The notes under the pieces: generated by a model | Database searches by the model: none | What the model was told of the DNA's origin: nothing | Seen by the model: the letters and a program-made list of their open reading frames with translations, nothing else | Position numbers and translations under genes: made by a program | Shown: positions 2,132-55,417 of the stretch, piece after piece | Layout of the letters: each line of letters begins with the position of its first letter | Position numbering within the stretch: position 1 is the stretch's first letter | Source of the DNA: Escherichia phage BRET | DNA: 59,550 nucleotides | Sequence record: MK165087.1 | Direction: 5' to 3' (one strand)

Positions 2132-3658
2132 ATGGCCATTTCTTCGGTTCATCCTAAATATTTACAGTTTAGTGCATTATGGTTGAAGATGCGAGACTGT
2201 TTCCTTGGAGCTGACCACATTAAGGCTCAAGGTACTTTGTATCTTCCACCGACACCTGCTATGCGTTATGACGGTATGAAACCAGGCGAAGATGGCTATA
2301 TCCGTTACAACGATTATAAAGAACGTGCAGTGTTCCCGGAATATGTGGCGGATGCAGTAATCAACCACGGTGGTATGTTGCATAGCAAGGCAGCTATTAT
2401 TCAGTTGCCTGCTGCAATGGAACCCCTTCGTCAATCTGCTACCAGCAAGCGCGAAGGTTTAGATCAGCTACTACGCCGCATAAACGAGCTACAGCTACGC
2501 GATGGTCGTCTTGGCCTTCTGTTGGAGCTGCCAGCGGGAAGTACCCGTGACACGCTGCCGTACATTGCGGTATACGAGGCGTTAAGTATACGAAACTGGG
2601 ATGATGGTGAAGACGATCTTGGTTCAGTTAATCTTAACCTAGTTGTATTGGATGAGTCCAAAGAAGTAATGGACAAGACTTCATTTGATTGGACTTATAA
2701 AGTTCAATACCGAGTTCTTGTTCTTGGAAGCGCCAGTGTAGATGAACCATCAGATAGCGGTTACGTGTACGGTCAGTACATGACAGAATTACTTCCTGGT
2801 GAGGATGACGAACCAGAAGAAGTAAGCTCTGATGTTGTAGTCCCTCAATATAAAGGTACTCCGCTTGAGCAGATACCTTTCGTATTTTGTAACGCTATGG
2901 ACTTAGTCCCAGAACCAGATAAACCACCGCTACTCGCATTAGCAAACAGATGTATTTCCATTTATCAGGGTGAAGCTGATTATCGACAGGCTTTGTTTAT
3001 GCAGAGCCAGGATACGCTGGTTGTTCGTGGTGGTATTACGAACAGTGACGCAGTTGATGATAAAGCTCCTGTTCGTGTTGGTGCTGGTGCTCGTATTGAT
3101 GTATCTCCGGACGGTGATGCCAAATACATTGGTACTAACTCGCAAGGTCTACCGGAGCAACGTAAAGCACTTGAAGCTGACCATAAAGACGCTCAGACTC
3201 GTTCCGGGCATTTAACCAGTGCAGAAAGTGCTGCTCAAGAGTCTGGTGACGCACTGGAAACACGTCTTATCACTAAAACTGCTTCATTAGTTGGTATTGC
3301 TAAGACTGGCGCTGCTGCGTTAGAAAAAATCCTTCGTATTTGTGCTATATGGATGGGATTAAATCCAGACGAAGTTAAAGTTACACCTAACCTTGACTTC
3401 AGCAAAGCTAATATTGAAGGCCAGGAATTGGTGCAGGTGCAAACTGCCAAGAATCTTGGTGCTCCGTTATGTGCTGAGTCTATGCACAACTGGTTGCAGG
3501 ATAAGGGAATGACCTCTTTGACGTTTGAAGAGGAGATGAAACGGCTTGAGGAGGAGCGCAAAGAATACCCGTTCCTTTTACCTCAAGTTAAAAATGATCA
3601 GAACCAGATCCAGCAAACAACCGGAGAACAGACGGGGAATGAAAATGCCGCTAAGTAA
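2132..3658 (+). CDS. portal protein
   Basis: 508 aa, acidic C-terminal region, follows terminase; AAGGAG RBS. Confidence 0.75.
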   Translation: MAISSVHPKYLQFSALWLKMRDCFLGADHIKAQGTLYLPPTPAMRYDGMKPGEDGYIRYNDYKERAVFPEYVADAVINHGGMLHSKAAIIQLPAAMEPLRQSATSKREGLDQLLRRINELQLRDGRLGLLLELPAGSTRDTLPYIAVYEALSIRNWDDGEDDLGSVNLNLVVLDESKEVMDKTSFDWTYKVQYRVLVLGSASVDEPSDSGYVYGQYMTELLPGEDDEPEEVSSDVVVPQYKGTPLEQIPFVFCNAMDLVPEPDKPPLLALANRCISIYQGEADYRQALFMQSQDTLVVRGGITNSDAVDDKAPVRVGAGARIDVSPDGDAKYIGTNSQGLPEQRKALEADHKDAQTRSGHLTSAESAAQESGDALETRLITKTASLVGIAKTGAAALEKILRICAIWMGLNPDEVKVTPNLDFSKANIEGQELVQVQTAKNLGAPLCAESMHNWLQDKGMTSLTFEEEMKRLEEERKEYPFLLPQVKNDQNQIQQTTGEQTGNENAAK

Positions 3659-3789
3659 AGGCGTGCAACGTAAAGCAAAAGACAAGAGTAAAAAATAGTT
3701 GCTTCATTCTTAATGATGTATTAGTCTTTATAGCGCGGTAGAACGGTCTATCGCGCTTTTTAGTGGAACGGTCCACAATGGAGAATTTT

Positions 3790-4668
3790 ATGAACAAATA
3801 TCACATTCATCTAGCGGTAGCTTATTCCGCTGGCTTCTTCCAGTCCATGCCTCGTTTTGGTGCATTGGAACTTGAATATACTTCTGAGGATGAAATCCCG
3901 GAAAACGCGCGTGAGTATTATTCCCAAGAAGGCGATAAGTGGATCCTCACTGGTGTAAAGGGTGGTGGCAAACAGAATATTGACAGGCTGCAATCCGCAC
4001 TTGAAAAAGAGCGCAACGATCATAAGGCGGTCAAGAGTAAGTTAAGTAAGCTGAACGGACGTGATATTGACGAACTCTTGCAGCGCGACGCTGAATATGA
4101 AGAGCTTAAACTACGTGCGGATAAAGTTGATGATGAAAAGCTGGAGCAGATCATTAACGTGCGCATCCGTAACAAGCTAACTCCGCTTGAGCGTGAACGT
4201 GACGAGCTGAAAAACAAACTTTCTACCTATGAGAAGCAAGTAGAAGAGCTGACCACAAAAGAGAAGAACCGCATCGTTAAGACCGCTCTCAGCAAGGCTG
4301 CAATGTCTGCTAAAGTGATCACGGAAGCTATTGACGACGTGGAACTGATTGGCTCTCGTTTGTTCGAGCTCACCGAAGACGGTCAGGTTGTTACCCGCGA
4401 CGGCGTTGGTGTAACCCCGGGCATCACTCCAGAAATGTGGTTACAGGACATTCAGGATAAGAAACCTCACTGGTTCCCTGGAAACGTTGGCGGGGGTGCT
4501 GGTGGCTCCCGTACTCCTGGCGCGGCTGGTAAGAACCCGTGGAGTGCTGAGGGTTGGAACCTTACTGAACAGGGTAAAATTCTTCGTGAAAATCCTGAAA
4601 AAGCAGGCCGTCTGGCAGCCATGGCTGGCGTGGACTTGAAGCGTCCAGTACGTCCAGTTAAAAAATAA
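3790..4668 (+). CDS. putative scaffolding protein
   Basis: Charged coiled-coil-like protein with Gly-rich basic C-terminus between portal and capsid; alternative starts at 3763 (GTG) and 3778. Confidence 0.55.
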   Translation: MNKYHIHLAVAYSAGFFQSMPRFGALELEYTSEDEIPENAREYYSQEGDKWILTGVKGGGKQNIDRLQSALEKERNDHKAVKSKLSKLNGRDIDELLQRDAEYEELKLRADKVDDEKLEQIINVRIRNKLTPLERERDELKNKLSTYEKQVEELTTKEKNRIVKTALSKAAMSAKVITEAIDDVELIGSRLFELTEDGQVVTRDGVGVTPGITPEMWLQDIQDKKPHWFPGNVGGGAGGSRTPGAAGKNPWSAEGWNLTEQGKILRENPEKAGRLAAMAGVDLKRPVRPVKK

Positions 4669-4806
4669 TAAAATTTGTTGACACTCCCTCCGGTTGGTGC
4701 TAGTTTTACATCAACCGGAGCACGGGCTCCGATCAATCAAGGATTATTGGAGCCTCCCACGGCGGTAGAGTTCCAAAGTAAATCGATTAACTTTGCGGAG
4801 ACTACC

Positions 4807-5910
4807 ATGTCTAAAATTCTGTCAGCTCCGATGCTTAATTTGCGAGCTACCAATTCAATTCTTCTGTCTGCTGTTCGTCGTGGTGCGATCACTGAACTTG
4901 CAGATGTTATCGTTCCAGAGATCTTCGTACCGTATGTGCAGAACCGCACTACTGAAAAGTCCCGACTGATTCAGTCTGGTGCTATTGAGATTTCTGAGCG
5001 TCTTAACGCTGCATTGATGGGTGAAGGTACTACCTTTAACCAGCGTTTCTTCAAAGACCTGGATCGTGATGAAGAAAACGTTTCCAGCGCAAGCGATTCA
5101 ACCGATTCTACTCCTGGCGGTATCAAATCTGGTCGTGAAATTCAGGTCCGTCTGTCTCGTAACCATTCATGGGGTTCTGCGGACCTGCTGGACAGCCTGA
5201 TCTCTCCTGACCCGCTGGATGCTATCATTAATCTGGTGGCAAGCTACCGTCAGAGTCGTCTGCAACGCGCATTCGTTGCGACTGTGAGTGGTGTGTTTGC
5301 TATGAACGCCGCTGCTCCGGTTAGTTCCGGTGATAAGAAGTCTACCCACGTTCAGAACGATATGACCCACGATATCTCTGGTTCATCCTTCACCGATGGT
5401 GTGACTAACTTCAACCCGGCGGGTGTTATTCTGGCTGCTGGTACTATGGGTGACTCCCTGAACGAGCTGTCCATGATGATGGTACACAGTGTGGTCTACC
5501 AGCGTATGCAGCTTATGAACCTGATCGACTTCATCCCGGATGCTCGTGCTGAAGTAATGATCCCGACCTACATGGGCCGTGAAGTTATCGTTGACGATAT
5601 GATGCCTCACGATAGCGGTAAGTACGAAACCTGGCTGGTTGGCCGTGGTGCATTCCAGTTGGGTGTTGGTTCACCGAAAGTTCCTGTTGAAACTGAACGT
5701 AAACCTGCATCCTACAAAGGTGGTGGTTCTGAAATCCTGTTCCACCGCTGGGAAAACATCATTCACCCTGTCGGTCACGCATGGGTTGGTACTGCTGCTG
5801 AAGGTGGTCCGGATAACGCCGCTCTGAAGACTGCTACCAACTGGGCTCGTGTATTCCCTGAGCGTAAACAGATTAAGATTGCTCGCCTGGTCACTCGCGA
5901 ACACGCTTAA
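4807..5910 (+). CDS. major capsid protein
   Basis: About 367 aa from internal ATG with GGAG RBS (track ORF begins 4675 on a TTG); position after scaffold; strong terminator follows. Confidence 0.7.
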   Translation: MSKILSAPMLNLRATNSILLSAVRRGAITELADVIVPEIFVPYVQNRTTEKSRLIQSGAIEISERLNAALMGEGTTFNQRFFKDLDRDEENVSSASDSTDSTPGGIKSGREIQVRLSRNHSWGSADLLDSLISPDPLDAIINLVASYRQSRLQRAFVATVSGVFAMNAAAPVSSGDKKSTHVQNDMTHDISGSSFTDGVTNFNPAGVILAAGTMGDSLNELSMMMVHSVVYQRMQLMNLIDFIPDARAEVMIPTYMGREVIVDDMMPHDSGKYETWLVGRGAFQLGVGSPKVPVETERKPASYKGGGSEILFHRWENIIHPVGHAWVGTAAEGGPDNAALKTATNWARVFPERKQIKIARLVTREHA

Positions 5911-51164: not shown

Positions 51165-51227
51165 AACCTCACCCTTGACTAAATAAAATCGATTGATTTT
51201 GAAATTCAGTTGCCAAGTTTTAATTTA

Positions 51228-51374
51228 TGCAAAGTTTTTGCTATTTGCAATTGTGATGTTTTGCGGTGTTTGTATGTGCAAAGTTTTTGCGTTTGCAAAA
51301 AATTACAACAGTCTGAAGGTGAGAAATTGCAAATTTATAAAGATCGGTGAAAAAATGCACAATTTATAAAGATT
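51228..51374. repeat. dyad-symmetric repeated elements in AT-rich non-coding region
   Basis: Two copies of TGCAAAGTTTTTGC(t/g)(a/t)TTTGCAA about 49 bp apart, plus two copies of (T)GCA(A/C)AATTTATAAAGAT about 30 bp apart. Confidence 0.4.
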
Positions 51375-51854
51375 CAGCAACATACGAAACCGCGAAGCGA
51401 AGTGTATGAAAAATAAGGGAAAATTTCGAGGATTGGGGGGTTTGTATGGATTTATATTATTTATAAAGGGGTCTCGTGGGGGTCGTCAGTAGACAACTCA
51501 AAAATAAAAAATCTTTATAAAATTTATATAAATACACACATACACACACTTTTACCTTATTTTTCATGCACTTACCCCCTTTCATTTCGTACATTAGGCG
51601 ACAATATACGAGCAATATAAGAAATATTTGTTGCGCAACGACTGTGTGTTTTCTAACCAATCGAAAGATTGCTTTATATACGTCCGCGCGTCTAACACAA
51701 AAGAAAAGTAGATTGCAAGCGATTTTTGCTGAGGTAACTCTCGAAGTGAAAGCGATTCGCGAGTTTGAAATTTTGTAGCCCGAAAACGATTCTATTTTAT
51801 GGTATAAATGCCGGATTTTTCGGGCAAAGCCGGCTTTTCGGTGAGGTTGGGTGG

Positions 51855-52030
51855 CTGGGATCGGGGTAGCGAGTCGCCCATAAGGCGAAAATAGCCGCGA
51901 AAACGGGGCACACAGCGCGATTAAACGGTTGGATCGGTGTAAGGGTGGCGGTGAGGGGCGAAAATGCCGCAAAATCGCGTACAGGGAAGCAGGGAGTGGA
52001 TCGCTGTAAGGGCGTGTAAGGCGACTGAAT
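51855..52030. repeat. GC-rich degenerate tandem repeat with GATC cores
   Basis: Three units starting GGATCG(G/C)(G/T)GTA(A/G) spaced about 70 bp apart; two are followed 26 nt later by GGCGAAAAT(a)GCCGC. Confidence 0.4.
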
Positions 52031-52142
52031 TGGAGTCAATGGTAATGTACGGAAGAGGGATTCAGGTTCTTAGAGCGCGAATGGTGGAGTTATGGGTGAG
52101 GAATATGTGGTCAGCAGGGTAACGCGGGAGGTGGTGCGGGTA

Positions 52143-52181
52143 CAAAAACGAAAACGCCCCGTTGGACTTCAACAGGGCGCG
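52143..52181 (-). terminator. rho-independent terminator (minus strand)
   Basis: On the minus strand GCGCCCTGTTG-aagtc-CAACGGGGCG followed by TTTTCGTTTTT, just downstream of the gene ending at 52204. Confidence 0.5.
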
Positions 52182-52203: not shown

Positions 52204-52452
52204 TTATTTACTAGTTAATAGTACCGCCCAGGTATTATCTGGAAGCGTACCAACTCCGAGTATCTTAAGCTGAAGCGACTGGTTCTGCATATTGTAGTTG
52301 TCCAGTAGCTCCTGGGCCGCGGCAGCGGCGTTCGCTTCACCGTTGAGGTTGTAGTCGTTACTCGTTACCGCGCACATACCGAGACCGACAGCTTTAAAGC
52401 GCATACCTTTCGTCTGAGTCGGTGCTAGTGCTTTGACATGGATAGCGTTCAT
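52204..52452 (-). CDS. hypothetical protein (small early paralog family A)
   Basis: 82-aa ORF; sequence-related to 52983..53237. Confidence 0.45.
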   Translation of the reverse strand: MNAIHVKALAPTQTKGMRFKAVGLGMCAVTSNDYNLNGEANAAAAAQELLDNYNMQNQSLQLKILGVGTLPDNTWAVLLTSK

Positions 52453-52481
52453 ATTATTTATCTCCGTTACAATTTGAAAGG

Positions 52482-52739
52482 TTAGCAGTTTTTTAACAGG
52501 TTAATGAAGCCCACCAGCGTGGACGCGGTTGCAACCAGGCGGCCCATAGTATGCAGTTCCGCGTAAACTTTACCGTCGTTGAACACCGTTAAATAAACGT
52601 TAAGACCATTGCAACGGACGCGATATTTGCGCGCGTTATTATTAAAAGTTTCCAATTCCGCAGTGATAGTTGCAAGGTTGACTATACGTTTTTCAATAAT
52701 GCGACGAGTGATCATGGACTGGTTTAATACTGTAGACAT
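52482..52739 (-). CDS. hypothetical protein (small early paralog family B)
   Basis: 85-aa ORF; N-terminal SMITRRIIEKR shared with 54356..54661. Confidence 0.45.
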   Translation of the reverse strand: MSTVLNQSMITRRIIEKRIVNLATITAELETFNNNARKYRVRCNGLNVYLTVFNDGKVYAELHTMGRLVATASTLVGFINLLKNC

Positions 52740-52807
52740 AATAATTTCCTCTGTTAATTATGCGAAGTGCATATTATTGCCCACTGTTACTATGGGCAAT
52801 GTATATG

Positions 52808-52972
52808 TCACTCAGCGGACACATATTCTAACGCTTCTGATAGTGTAGCGAAGTGACCATCACTCACCAGATTAATAGCGTACTCAAGTTGATCGCGGGT
52901 CAGGTTGCGAAACTTGTTGCGGATGTGATAGCAACGACCGCGATAAATAACCTGGAAATAGTTGCGTTCCAT
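52808..52972 (-). CDS. hypothetical small protein
   Basis: Internal ATG of track ORF 52808..53050, placed to avoid overlap with the upstream gene. Confidence 0.3.
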   Translation of the reverse strand: MERNYFQVIYRGRCYHIRNKFRNLTRDQLEYAINLVSDGHFATLSEALEYVSAE

Positions 52973-52982
52973 AATTATCCCC

Positions 52983-53237
52983 TTATGCAACGATGAACGC
53001 GTAACCACTTTGATCCGGGAGCTCACCACCAGCGAGAATCTCAAATTCAACGCCCGCTTTAGCGTTAAACTTATTGATCAGCTCCTCCGCTGCGGCGCGA
53101 TGGTTGCCGTAAACGCCCAGATCGTCACGCCATGTGATAGTTACAGAACCGTTCCAGCCCGTTGCTTTTACGCGCGGAGCGCGAGCGGCAGTTGGGTTCA
53201 CGAATTTGGTAATAATAGCTTGAGCCATGATAGTCAC
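52983..53237 (-). CDS. hypothetical protein (small early paralog family A)
   Basis: 84-aa ORF; shares PT...R.KA.G / AAA.EL / ILG.G.LPD pattern with 52204..52452. Confidence 0.45.
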   Translation of the reverse strand: MTIMAQAIITKFVNPTAARAPRVKATGWNGSVTITWRDDLGVYGNHRAAAEELINKFNAKAGVEFEILAGGELPDQSGYAFIVA

Positions 53238-53263
53238 TCCTTAAATTATGTTAACGTTAATAT

Positions 53264-53539
53264 TCACTCAGCGCGAAGGCCCATCGGGTGAATAGTTTGC
53301 TTCTGAAATTCAGCATACGCTTCAGCGATCAGCTTGTCCCAGTATTCTTTAACTTCCGGATAGTTACTGGAAGTGAATACTACACCATTCCGAGTGTGGA
53401 TCTCGTACTGGCAGCACGTTTCCTCTTCGGTCCACAGATCAAACTCGTGGCGGTGGTACAGGTAGAAGGACTGACGGTTCAACACAACTCGAGCCATTTC
53501 AACGAAAGAATTCTGGTTAGGTTTACGCATGATAATCAC
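53264..53539 (-). CDS. hypothetical protein
   Basis: 91-aa ORF. Confidence 0.4.
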   Translation of the reverse strand: MIIMRKPNQNSFVEMARVVLNRQSFYLYHRHEFDLWTEEETCCQYEIHTRNGVVFTSSNYPEVKEYWDKLIAEAYAEFQKQTIHPMGLRAE

Positions 53540-53721
53540 TCCGGTAAAATTACAGTCACGTTAATATTTGCAATGCGAGCGCACTCGGTGAAACCTTTTA
53601 CATAAGCATCCATTTCGTCATAGGATGCGAAAGTCACGTCCGGGACTGGTCCGTTGTTAATATTCACGCAATATTCGTGTTCGTCCAGGTCAACCCAACA
53701 AGTTAGAACGATAGTTTCCAT
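53536..53721 (-). CDS. hypothetical small protein
   Basis: Internal ATG (METIVLTCW...) of track ORF 53536..53754. Confidence 0.35.
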   Translation of the reverse strand: METIVLTCWVDLDEHEYCVNINNGPVPDVTFASYDEMDAYVKGFTECARIANINVTVILPE

Positions 53722-53799
53722 ATTATTTACCCTCCGTATAATACAGACCCGCAACTATTGGAGCACCGAATACCAAGAACGCTAATAAGTAGAACATAA

Positions 53800-54294
53800 T
53801 TAATTGCCCCCTTTATTGTTGAGCCCGTGGAATTTGCGCCATGCGTAGAATTCAATCGTTGCGTTATTAATATTCCAACTATTAGCTTTCGCAAGGTCAC
53901 GGACGTTACCAATAGTTGGCACACCATTAGGCAACATATTATCCAGAGCGTTCCAAACGTCTGCACATTTACCTTTAATTGGGCGACGGACCCCGTTGCG
54001 CGTTTCGCTGCGCGTTTTACCTTTGACGGGAGCGACCGGAGCTGGTTGTGTGGTCACTTCCACGACAGTTGCTTTATCAGCTTCTACCAGATCGTTAGCT
54101 GCCTTATTAACCGCGCTTTCGCTGTACCAGTAGCGGCCACCGTCTTCGTGCGGTTCCTGGTGAATAAAGCTATTAGCTGTCGCAGTGTCCACATCCAGAA
54201 CCTTTTTTAAGGCACGGCGAGCGTTAGACATAGTGGCGAAGAAGCGAGCGTCTTTTGCTACGCGAGTGATAGTTGCCATTGTGATTATCTCCAT
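53800..54294 (-). CDS. hypothetical protein
   Basis: About 160-aa ORF; start may be 54279. Confidence 0.4.
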   Translation of the reverse strand: MEIITMATITRVAKDARFFATMSNARRALKKVLDVDTATANSFIHQEPHEDGGRYWYSESAVNKAANDLVEADKATVVEVTTQPAPVAPVKGKTRSETRNGVRRPIKGKCADVWNALDNMLPNGVPTIGNVRDLAKANSWNINNATIEFYAWRKFHGLNNKGGN

Positions 54295-54355
54295 GTTGAT
54301 CTAGCGGATTGCTAGTGGGAGCCCACTGTAACAATGGGCAACCATTAACACGCTA

Positions 54356-54661
54356 TTATTGTTGAATAGCCTTAGCTATCATTGCAATAAAGCAGAACAC
54401 AGACCAAAGGCTATTCGCTTGACATACTGGTCGACCGTACATTACGCTATAAGAGCTGACAGTGCCGTTCTCGTTAATGCGAATATATAACGCGGTGCTG
54501 GAATACTTTTCGTTTCCCGGGAGCATTACTAAATACTCGTCGTAATCCCAGTCCCCGTTGACTTTTTCCGCAGTAAGGCCCAGCTGATACAGGCGCTTGC
54601 CAATAATACGTTTGGTGATCATGGACTGGGACATAGAACGCGGTAAGTAGATAATGGACAT
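54356..54661 (-). CDS. hypothetical protein (small early paralog family B)
   Basis: 101-aa ORF with AAGGGAGA RBS; N-terminal SMITKRIIGKR. Confidence 0.45.
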   Translation of the reverse strand: MSIIYLPRSMSQSMITKRIIGKRLYQLGLTAEKVNGDWDYDEYLVMLPGNEKYSSTALYIRINENGTVSSYSVMYGRPVCQANSLWSVFCFIAMIAKAIQQ

Positions 54662-54846
54662 AATGCAATCTCCCTTCGGGTGAAGCGGGCGCGGAACCCG
54701 TGTCCCGCTTTAAAACCCCCTTTACCCCACGCGTTTATAATATGACAGCAGGGTATCAGATGCAACTATTATCTGCATTATTTTAGAACTTTTTTAGTTG
54801 TGTTTCATAATAATAACATCCGGGACTATACGGTAGATGGTGTGCC

Positions 54847-54915
54847 GGAAATACCAGGTGGCGCGAGTGTGCTGAAAATACCAGGTAACAGCACGCGCAG
54901 GAAATACCAGGTAGC
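54847..54915. repeat. iteron-like direct repeats (3 x AAATACCAGGT at 26-bp period)
   Basis: Copies at about 54850, 54876 and 54902 in the intergenic region between divergent operons. Confidence 0.5.
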
Positions 54916-55215
54916 ACATACATAGACAGCACATAGTGGGCAGGTGGATAGTAACAGATGTAATTATACTGGACGGTATAGTATAGTCATGTAATAGATA
55001 ACATACTAATCAAATAAAAAATAATAACGCGTGCAACAATAAACAACGTTACAATAGAGCGCGCGACAGTCACATGACGTAACAATCACCTCACTGACGA
55101 TCACGGGACGTTATAGTAACGCCGCGGGGCGGCTCTTAGATCTCTGCCAAGGATTCATCTTTTGTAGATTATCTCGTCACTAGACACTTTATATCCCCAC
55201 CTCACCTGCCCTATA

Positions 55216-55244
55216 TTGTTCGTATAAAGTTAATTCCGTATATA
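55216..55244 (+). promoter_or_regulatory. candidate sigma70-type early promoter
   Basis: TTGTTC-N17-TATATA upstream of the rightward operon starting at 55418. Confidence 0.25.
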
Positions 55245-55417
55245 AATACTCGAGATCAGGTTTACAAGATTCGGTTTCCTGTATGTGTAACTGATTTGCC
55301 GCACAAGATTTAAAGCACACGAGACAGCTAACTGTGGTTATTAATTGTTGCGGCCGGCTATGTTAATCAACTTGCGTATCCTGTTATAGTTATTCCGTTA
55401 ACGTTAAAGGGGTTTAT

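Follow-up and report, generated by a model that had tools for sequence, protein, structure and literature searches.

The window analysed here is the whole 59,550-nucleotide (nt) stretch of DNA from Escherichia phage BRET (MK165087.1), and the element under study is a block of small genes at 52204–54661 that contains two pairs of paralogs, designated A1/A2 and B1/B2. The stretch belongs to Nonagvirus (phage 9g-like) of the subfamily Queuovirinae, with a 3-kb region 91–94% identical to vB_EcoM_PD328, JenK1, HdK1, JenP2, 9g, and others, and it looks like a complete genome. It opens with the small terminase gene, followed by structural genes on the plus strand to ~24 kb. The minus strand carries replication and 7-deazaguanine genes up to 51164 and then the studied block. 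Beyond the block lie a divergent intergenic region (54662–55417) and a set of rightward genes, those for lysis among them. The block is a single unit of eight genes, all on the minus strand, and the four open reading frames (ORFs) on which the initial annotation had based its two pairs were all present there. In the order of transcription (B2, g164, g72, g91, A2, g54, B1, A1), the features are as follows.

54963..54990, minus strand: sigma70-like promoter ATGACT-16-TATAAT, 10 of 12 matches in a consensus scan, the putative leftward early promoter (predicted)
54840..54912, minus strand: three direct repeats with the core ACCTGGTATTTYC, spaced by 26–27 nt, in the leader that separates the promoter from B2
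54356..54661, minus strand: B2, 101 amino acids (aa), family B (phrog_13865), the operon's first gene
53800..54294, minus strand: g164, basic protein, isoelectric point (pI) 9.6, phrog_17772, probable start at 54279
53536..53754, minus strand: g72, small acidic protein, phrog_5461, probable start at 53721
53264..53539, minus strand: g91, rare accessory gene with no PHROG match, probable start at 53530
52983..53237, minus strand: A2, 84 aa (probably 81 aa), canonical representative of family A, phrog_3199
52808..52972, minus strand: g54, 54 aa, phrog_18706
52482..52739, minus strand: B1, a basic protein of 85 aa (pI 9.9), family B
52204..52452, minus strand: A1, 82 aa, divergent A1-type representative of family A, phrog_3199, the operon's last gene
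52144..52180, minus strand (also given as 52154..52180): strong intrinsic terminator, an 11-bp stem with 7 GC pairs followed by a T-run, directly after A1 and closing the operon

Shine-Dalgarno-like motifs were found ahead of the gene starts in the block. The start of A2 is probably the ATG at 53228 rather than the GTG at 53237, since the orthologues are annotated at 246 nt and a GGAG sits 8 nt upstream of this ATG. The stop of B1 is separated from A1 by 29 nt.

The proposal of two paralog pairs was borne out by pairwise alignment, by a shuffle test in which Smith-Waterman scores were compared with those of 2000 shuffles, and by a common PHROG for each pair. A1 and A2 were identical at 26 of 73 positions (36%; BLASTP, E = 1e-10). 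Their Smith-Waterman score, 86, compares with a mean of 24.1 among the shuffles (standard deviation 4.5) and gives z = 13.8, and both matched the phrog_3199 profile (A1, E = 1e-25; A2, E = 1.9e-29), covering only positions 1–80 of its 181. B1 and B2 were identical at 25 of 77 positions (32%, E = 1e-7) with z = 11.1, and both matched phrog_13865 (B1, E = 2.9e-35, positions 6–95 of 101; B2, E = 2.2e-58, positions 1–101). For both pairs, none of the 2000 shuffles reached the observed score, so that similarity no better than chance, the outcome named beforehand as a refutation, did not occur. The N-terminal motif SMIT(K/R)RII previously quoted for the B pair was found (QSMITRRIIEKR in B1 and QSMITKRIIGKR in B2); the likeness is, however, not confined to the N-terminus and spans the entire protein. 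Comparisons of A with B proteins stayed at chance level in the shuffle test, and A and B are two unrelated small-protein families. As g91 and g72 also compared at chance level (z = 1.8), although both had faint DUF7441 matches, there is no third pair in the block.

The presence of the block genes was compared in 12 Nonagvirus genomes, BRET included. A1 was found in 12/12 in two allele classes, ~90% and ~65% identical to the BRET copy, and the phages with the ~65% class (9g, JenP1, SP8, and SE1) were exactly those that had no B1, which was present in the other 8. A2 was detected in 11/12, also in two allele classes (~70% and ~90%), and was missing together with g54 from ChristophMerian. B2 was likewise detected in 11/12, FritzHoffmann being the genome where it was not. 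The rare insertion g91 occurred only in BRET, PD328, and SP8 (3/12), and g164 was found in all twelve. The pairwise ratio of nonsynonymous to synonymous substitution rates (dN/dS) among these genomes was 0.09–0.23 for all eight genes (A2, 0.18; B2, 0.086). The block genes are thus real and protein-coding, because all eight are under purifying selection. The expectation that such genes are diversifying is not supported at the codon level; it holds only for presence/absence and for the variation of allele cassettes. The promoter-proximal end of the operon was observed to be a swap site. At the position of B2, two other small genes are annotated in FritzHoffmann (locus 3555–4167), and in ChristophMerian (locus 3143–3891) additional small genes lie upstream of B2, which is annotated there with an N-terminal extension (140 aa).

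The comparison was extended to 17 genomes by five distant relatives, namely two metagenomic contigs (61–64 kb), Klebsiella phages K9PH25C2 and Kpn2-P2, and Escherichia phage Ec1-ASingh. In each of these five, the homologous block contained one orthologue of g164 (51–63% identical), one B1-type gene (47–60% identical to B1 and 28–36% to B2), and one A1-type gene (62–83% identical to A1), followed by an ORF-poor gap of 1.1–1.25 kb. The order g164, x, B, A, noncoding gap was kept in all five. In K9PH25C2 and Kpn2-P2, the annotated stop of B and start of A overlap by 4 nt, and the same coordinates were found in the unannotated Ec1-ASingh. In each of the 17 genomes there is one A1-type gene, together with g164 and at least one B gene; because of this universal presence, the core of A1-type and B genes behaves as a conserved function and not as a dispensable accessory. 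The extra copies, as well as B1 where B2 exists, behave as cassettes gained, lost, or swapped between close relatives around the conserved core.

Genes of the A2 and B2 types were found within the homologous block only in Nonagvirus among the 17 genomes. Of 257 family A proteins from other sources, 248 scored higher against A2 than against A1. The best outside match of A2 reached an identity of 56%, as against 36% for the pair of A2 and A1, and these outsiders came from unrelated phages. The A1-type proteins depart from the family at three near-invariant positions (Q6N, T10V, and H46A in A2 numbering). The identity of B2 with B1-type proteins was only 28–36% throughout, also in the distant relatives. 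The paralogs are thus not each other's closest relatives, and the term "duplicated", understood as a recent tandem duplication within the genome, had to be abandoned. The position of A2 nearer to outsiders, together with the three A1-type substitutions, indicates that A1 and A2 are old paralogs or separate acquisitions. The ancestral arrangement would have been one B1-type gene with one A1-type gene directly after it, sometimes translationally coupled, to which Nonagvirus would have added a second, very divergent B gene (B2) and a canonical member of family A (A2).

Family A is, as judged from sequence searches, phage-specific and widespread. An exhaustive profile search gave 4,217 clusters (50% identity) at E ≤ 1e-3 and 817 at E ≤ 1e-10. 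Members were found in 150 annotated phage records, including phages of Escherichia, Salmonella, Pseudomonas, and Klebsiella, and in a few bacterial genome assemblies; the canonical member had no match among 72,556 plasmids. Neither A1 nor A2 had a Pfam match at E ≤ 1, none of 60 diverse family members had one at E ≤ 0.01, and no match was found in NCBIfam or among PDB sequences. The families phrog_3199 and phrog_13865 are the A and B families themselves, both listed with "unknown function", and the orthologues are "hypothetical protein" in every related GenBank record. A search of the literature for the PHROG ids and locus tags found no functional data. The AlphaFold2 (AF2) model of A2 had a mean predicted local distance difference test (pLDDT) score of 92.8 and consisted of five strands and one helix in the order b-b-b-a-b-b (beta3-alpha-beta2). 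No close solved structure was found for this fold, and a BFVD search returned uncharacterised phage proteins only. A hairpin with the pattern TK..PT..R.KA is conserved in the family. The pI was 7.9 for A1 and 6.6 for A2. Among 80 IMG/VR loci and 4 long contigs with family A genes, no neighbour was recurrent (maximum 14/80), and the family A gene was always surrounded by small unannotated genes. The N-terminal domain of HicB antitoxin and TTHA1756-like small alpha/beta proteins were listed among the nearest known systems. A HicB-like antitoxin would be expected to have a HicA toxin gene beside it and/or a C-terminal DNA-binding domain; the neighbours B1, g54, and g91 had no Pfam match above threshold, and A is a single domain. 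One metagenomic protein of 152 aa (P0123) contained a tandem of two family A domains, a hint of dimerisation. Longer members (138–196 aa) had unannotated, non-conserved C-terminal extensions, some of them cysteine-rich, and a Pfam scan of 10 long members was negative.

Family B is lineage-restricted. The AF2 model of B2 (pLDDT 77.8) showed a helix, five strands, and a helix, and both proteins were basic (pI of B2, 9.0). A helix with the pattern QSxITRRIIG is conserved in B. Small alpha-beta-alpha inhibitor and immunity proteins (TriTu, DddI, PsiB, and AcrIIA11) and frataxin-like folds were listed among the nearest known systems. A likeness of 25 residues to the beta-hairpin of lambda Cro was at chance level (E = 0.3); a DNA-binding motif was not detected in B. 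The product of g164 (164 aa), for which neither Pfam nor PDB gave a match, had a strongly conserved C-terminal region (RPIKGKCA.VW ... NATIEFY.WRKFH). No other member of the block is as well conserved, and g164 might be the block's key component. PDB sequence profile searches with families A and B and g164 gave chance-level matches only. Scans of all eight block proteins against Pfam, NCBIfam, and PADLOC revealed no significant family, the PADLOC matches being at chance level.

Several features bear on the timing of expression. The annotations of HdK1 and SP8 also place a terminator where the BRET operon ends, and in phage 9g a leftward promoter was predicted by BPROM in the matching intergenic region, upstream of the B2 orthologue. 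The physical left end of 9g DNA was mapped adjoining the divergent promoter region, the genome end near the block was proposed to be injected first, and the leftward half was described as early or early/middle (Kulikov et al., 2014, PMC4276943). The block is most likely the first leftward transcript, because it is bracketed by a promoter and a terminator and adjoins the divergent promoters and the physical end of 9g. Transcript data for the block were not found in the literature, and a literature search on Queuovirinae transcriptomics found no functional data. From the promoter, the terminator, and the position next to the start of the 9g early region, we infer an early timing of the block, and the description of its genes as early is plausible to this extent.

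The core of the leader repeats, ACCTGGTATTTYC, had three exact sites in the leader and one site with one mismatch elsewhere in the BRET genome against 0.14 expected, the leader sites being the sole cluster. It was present in one to three copies in 10 of the 11 Nonagvirus relatives (none in JenP1) and in none of the five distant relatives. As the physical genome end mapped in 9g is only a few hundred bp away, the repeats may serve as an operator or be related to packaging. On the other side of the block, an ORF-poor gap of ~1 kb (51165–52153) separates the operon terminator from the next minus-strand gene. A gap of 1.0–1.25 kb was found at the same place in all relatives, distant ones included, and in JenP1 a homing endonuclease is inserted in it. 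The terminator-side half is C-rich on the minus strand (GC 49–58%); the other half is AT-rich (GC 26–39%) with direct and inverted repeats of the TTTATAAAGAT type. The core of the gap (51684–51800) was 70–84% conserved in the distant relatives. Rfam and tRNA searches of the BRET stretch and the downstream gap gave nothing credible. Possible identities of the gap are an origin, a cluster of promoters, and an unknown RNA.

No catalytic motif, helix-turn-helix (HTH), signal peptide, or transmembrane segment was found in family A or B. We tentatively favour, at slightly less than an even chance, the reading that these are small early proteins acting by binding, that the ancestral B-A pair probably cooperates, and that the extra Nonagvirus copies add or alter specificity. 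The proteins would bind a macromolecule of the host (or of the phage) early in infection in a stoichiometric, non-enzymatic manner. They would thereby take over the host or protect the phage genome as it enters, and the paralogs would serve different target variants or partners. That B and A probably act together we infer from the adjacency of the ancestral B1-type and A1-type genes, which are sometimes translationally coupled.

The main alternative, a rather unlikely one, is that B and/or A bind phage nucleic acid together with the basic g164 and are phage-internal regulators or replication accessory factors. Their sites would be the three leader repeats and the 1-kb noncoding region downstream, with an effect on the early-to-middle switch or on the origin. 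It is favoured by the presence of the core in every genome examined and by the basic character of B1 and g164. It also takes in the idea of the authors of 9g, who labelled gp3, the A2 orthologue, as a TetR-family protein and proposed it as a regulator of the early/late switch (Kulikov et al., 2014, PMC4276943). The corresponding gene (9g_00036, 4694–4939 in 9g) carries the GenBank note "TetR family transcription regulator". The likeness to such a regulator lies in A2 and its orthologue being small early-region proteins. However, A2 had no TetR_N or other Pfam match, its length is 84 aa vs. ~200 (190–220) for TetR proteins, and its model has the five-strand, one-helix fold instead of an all-alpha HTH fold. 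The TetR label was therefore rejected, and the note on the 9g orthologue should not spread further. The orthologue of g54 in 9g is likewise noted as "similar to bacterial oxidoreductases", for which profile searches gave no support. Binding of phage nucleic acid is further opposed by the near-neutral pI of A1 and A2, by the occurrence of family A in thousands of phages that have no such gap, repeats, or conserved neighbour, by the strong terminator between the operon and the gap, and by the failure to detect a DNA-binding motif in B.

Dedicated anti-defence proteins, a role that the initial annotation had suggested, with each paralog directed against a different host immune system, are an unlikely explanation too and had no direct support. 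Such inhibition of different immune systems would explain the patchy spread of the extra copies. Against it stand the lack of any known-family match in Pfam, NCBIfam, and PADLOC, the purifying selection, and the universal retention of the core copies. Anti-restriction genes of the Ocr/ArdA type are common to plasmids and phages; the canonical family A member, in contrast, was absent from the plasmids searched. DNA mimics of this type have a strongly acidic surface, and the pI values of all four proteins (6.6–9.9) exclude them from it. ChristophMerian, which has neither A2 nor g54, is the only EcoKI-sensitive Nonagvirus in BASEL. An anti-EcoKI role of A2 was rejected all the same, because this lead is confounded by the number of EcoKI sites (AACN6GTGC; two in ChristophMerian, one in FritzHoffmann, and none in BRET) and by several other differing regions. 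The sensitivity of ChristophMerian is attributed to its two sites as compared with one in FritzHoffmann, and not to the loss of A2. Avoidance of sites may act in BRET besides the dG+ DNA modification.

In a bolder and quite improbable reading, family A might represent a new type of immediate-early effector whose target would be some conserved function of the host, e.g., a nuclease or a part of its defence that linear DNA encounters on entry, which it would neutralise. Its partner in a complex would be the lineage-specific B in Queuovirinae-like phages, and A2 and B2 of Nonagvirus would extend the target range. That the pair similarities arose by chance, or that the ORFs are not genuine genes, has practically no probability left, as nothing more than the small size of the ORFs suggests it, against the z-scores of 13.8 and 11.1 with 0/2000 shuffles, the common PHROG profiles, dN/dS far under 1, the Shine-Dalgarno-like motifs, and hundreds to thousands of homologues.

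The paralog pairs of BRET are ordinary phage gene-family behaviour. Multiple diverged copies of small ORFs near early promoters, with a copy number that varies between close relatives, are general in virulent phages, and the block resembles their paralogous small early genes in both the clustering of diverged copies and the variable copy number. It differs from them in that the pairs are ancient and not recent tandem copies, and in that the B1-type and A1-type genes form a conserved adjacent module. The added interest is modest and comes from family A being so large and so little known, and from the conserved B-A pairing. Family A is a reasonable target for functional screens, since it is a large family with no domain model, a confidently predicted fold, and no close solved structure. 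The B-A pair, sometimes translationally coupled, is a concrete two-protein hypothesis that is testable in Bas19 and Bas20, two BASEL phages that are genetically tractable and naturally differ in their A2 and B2 content.

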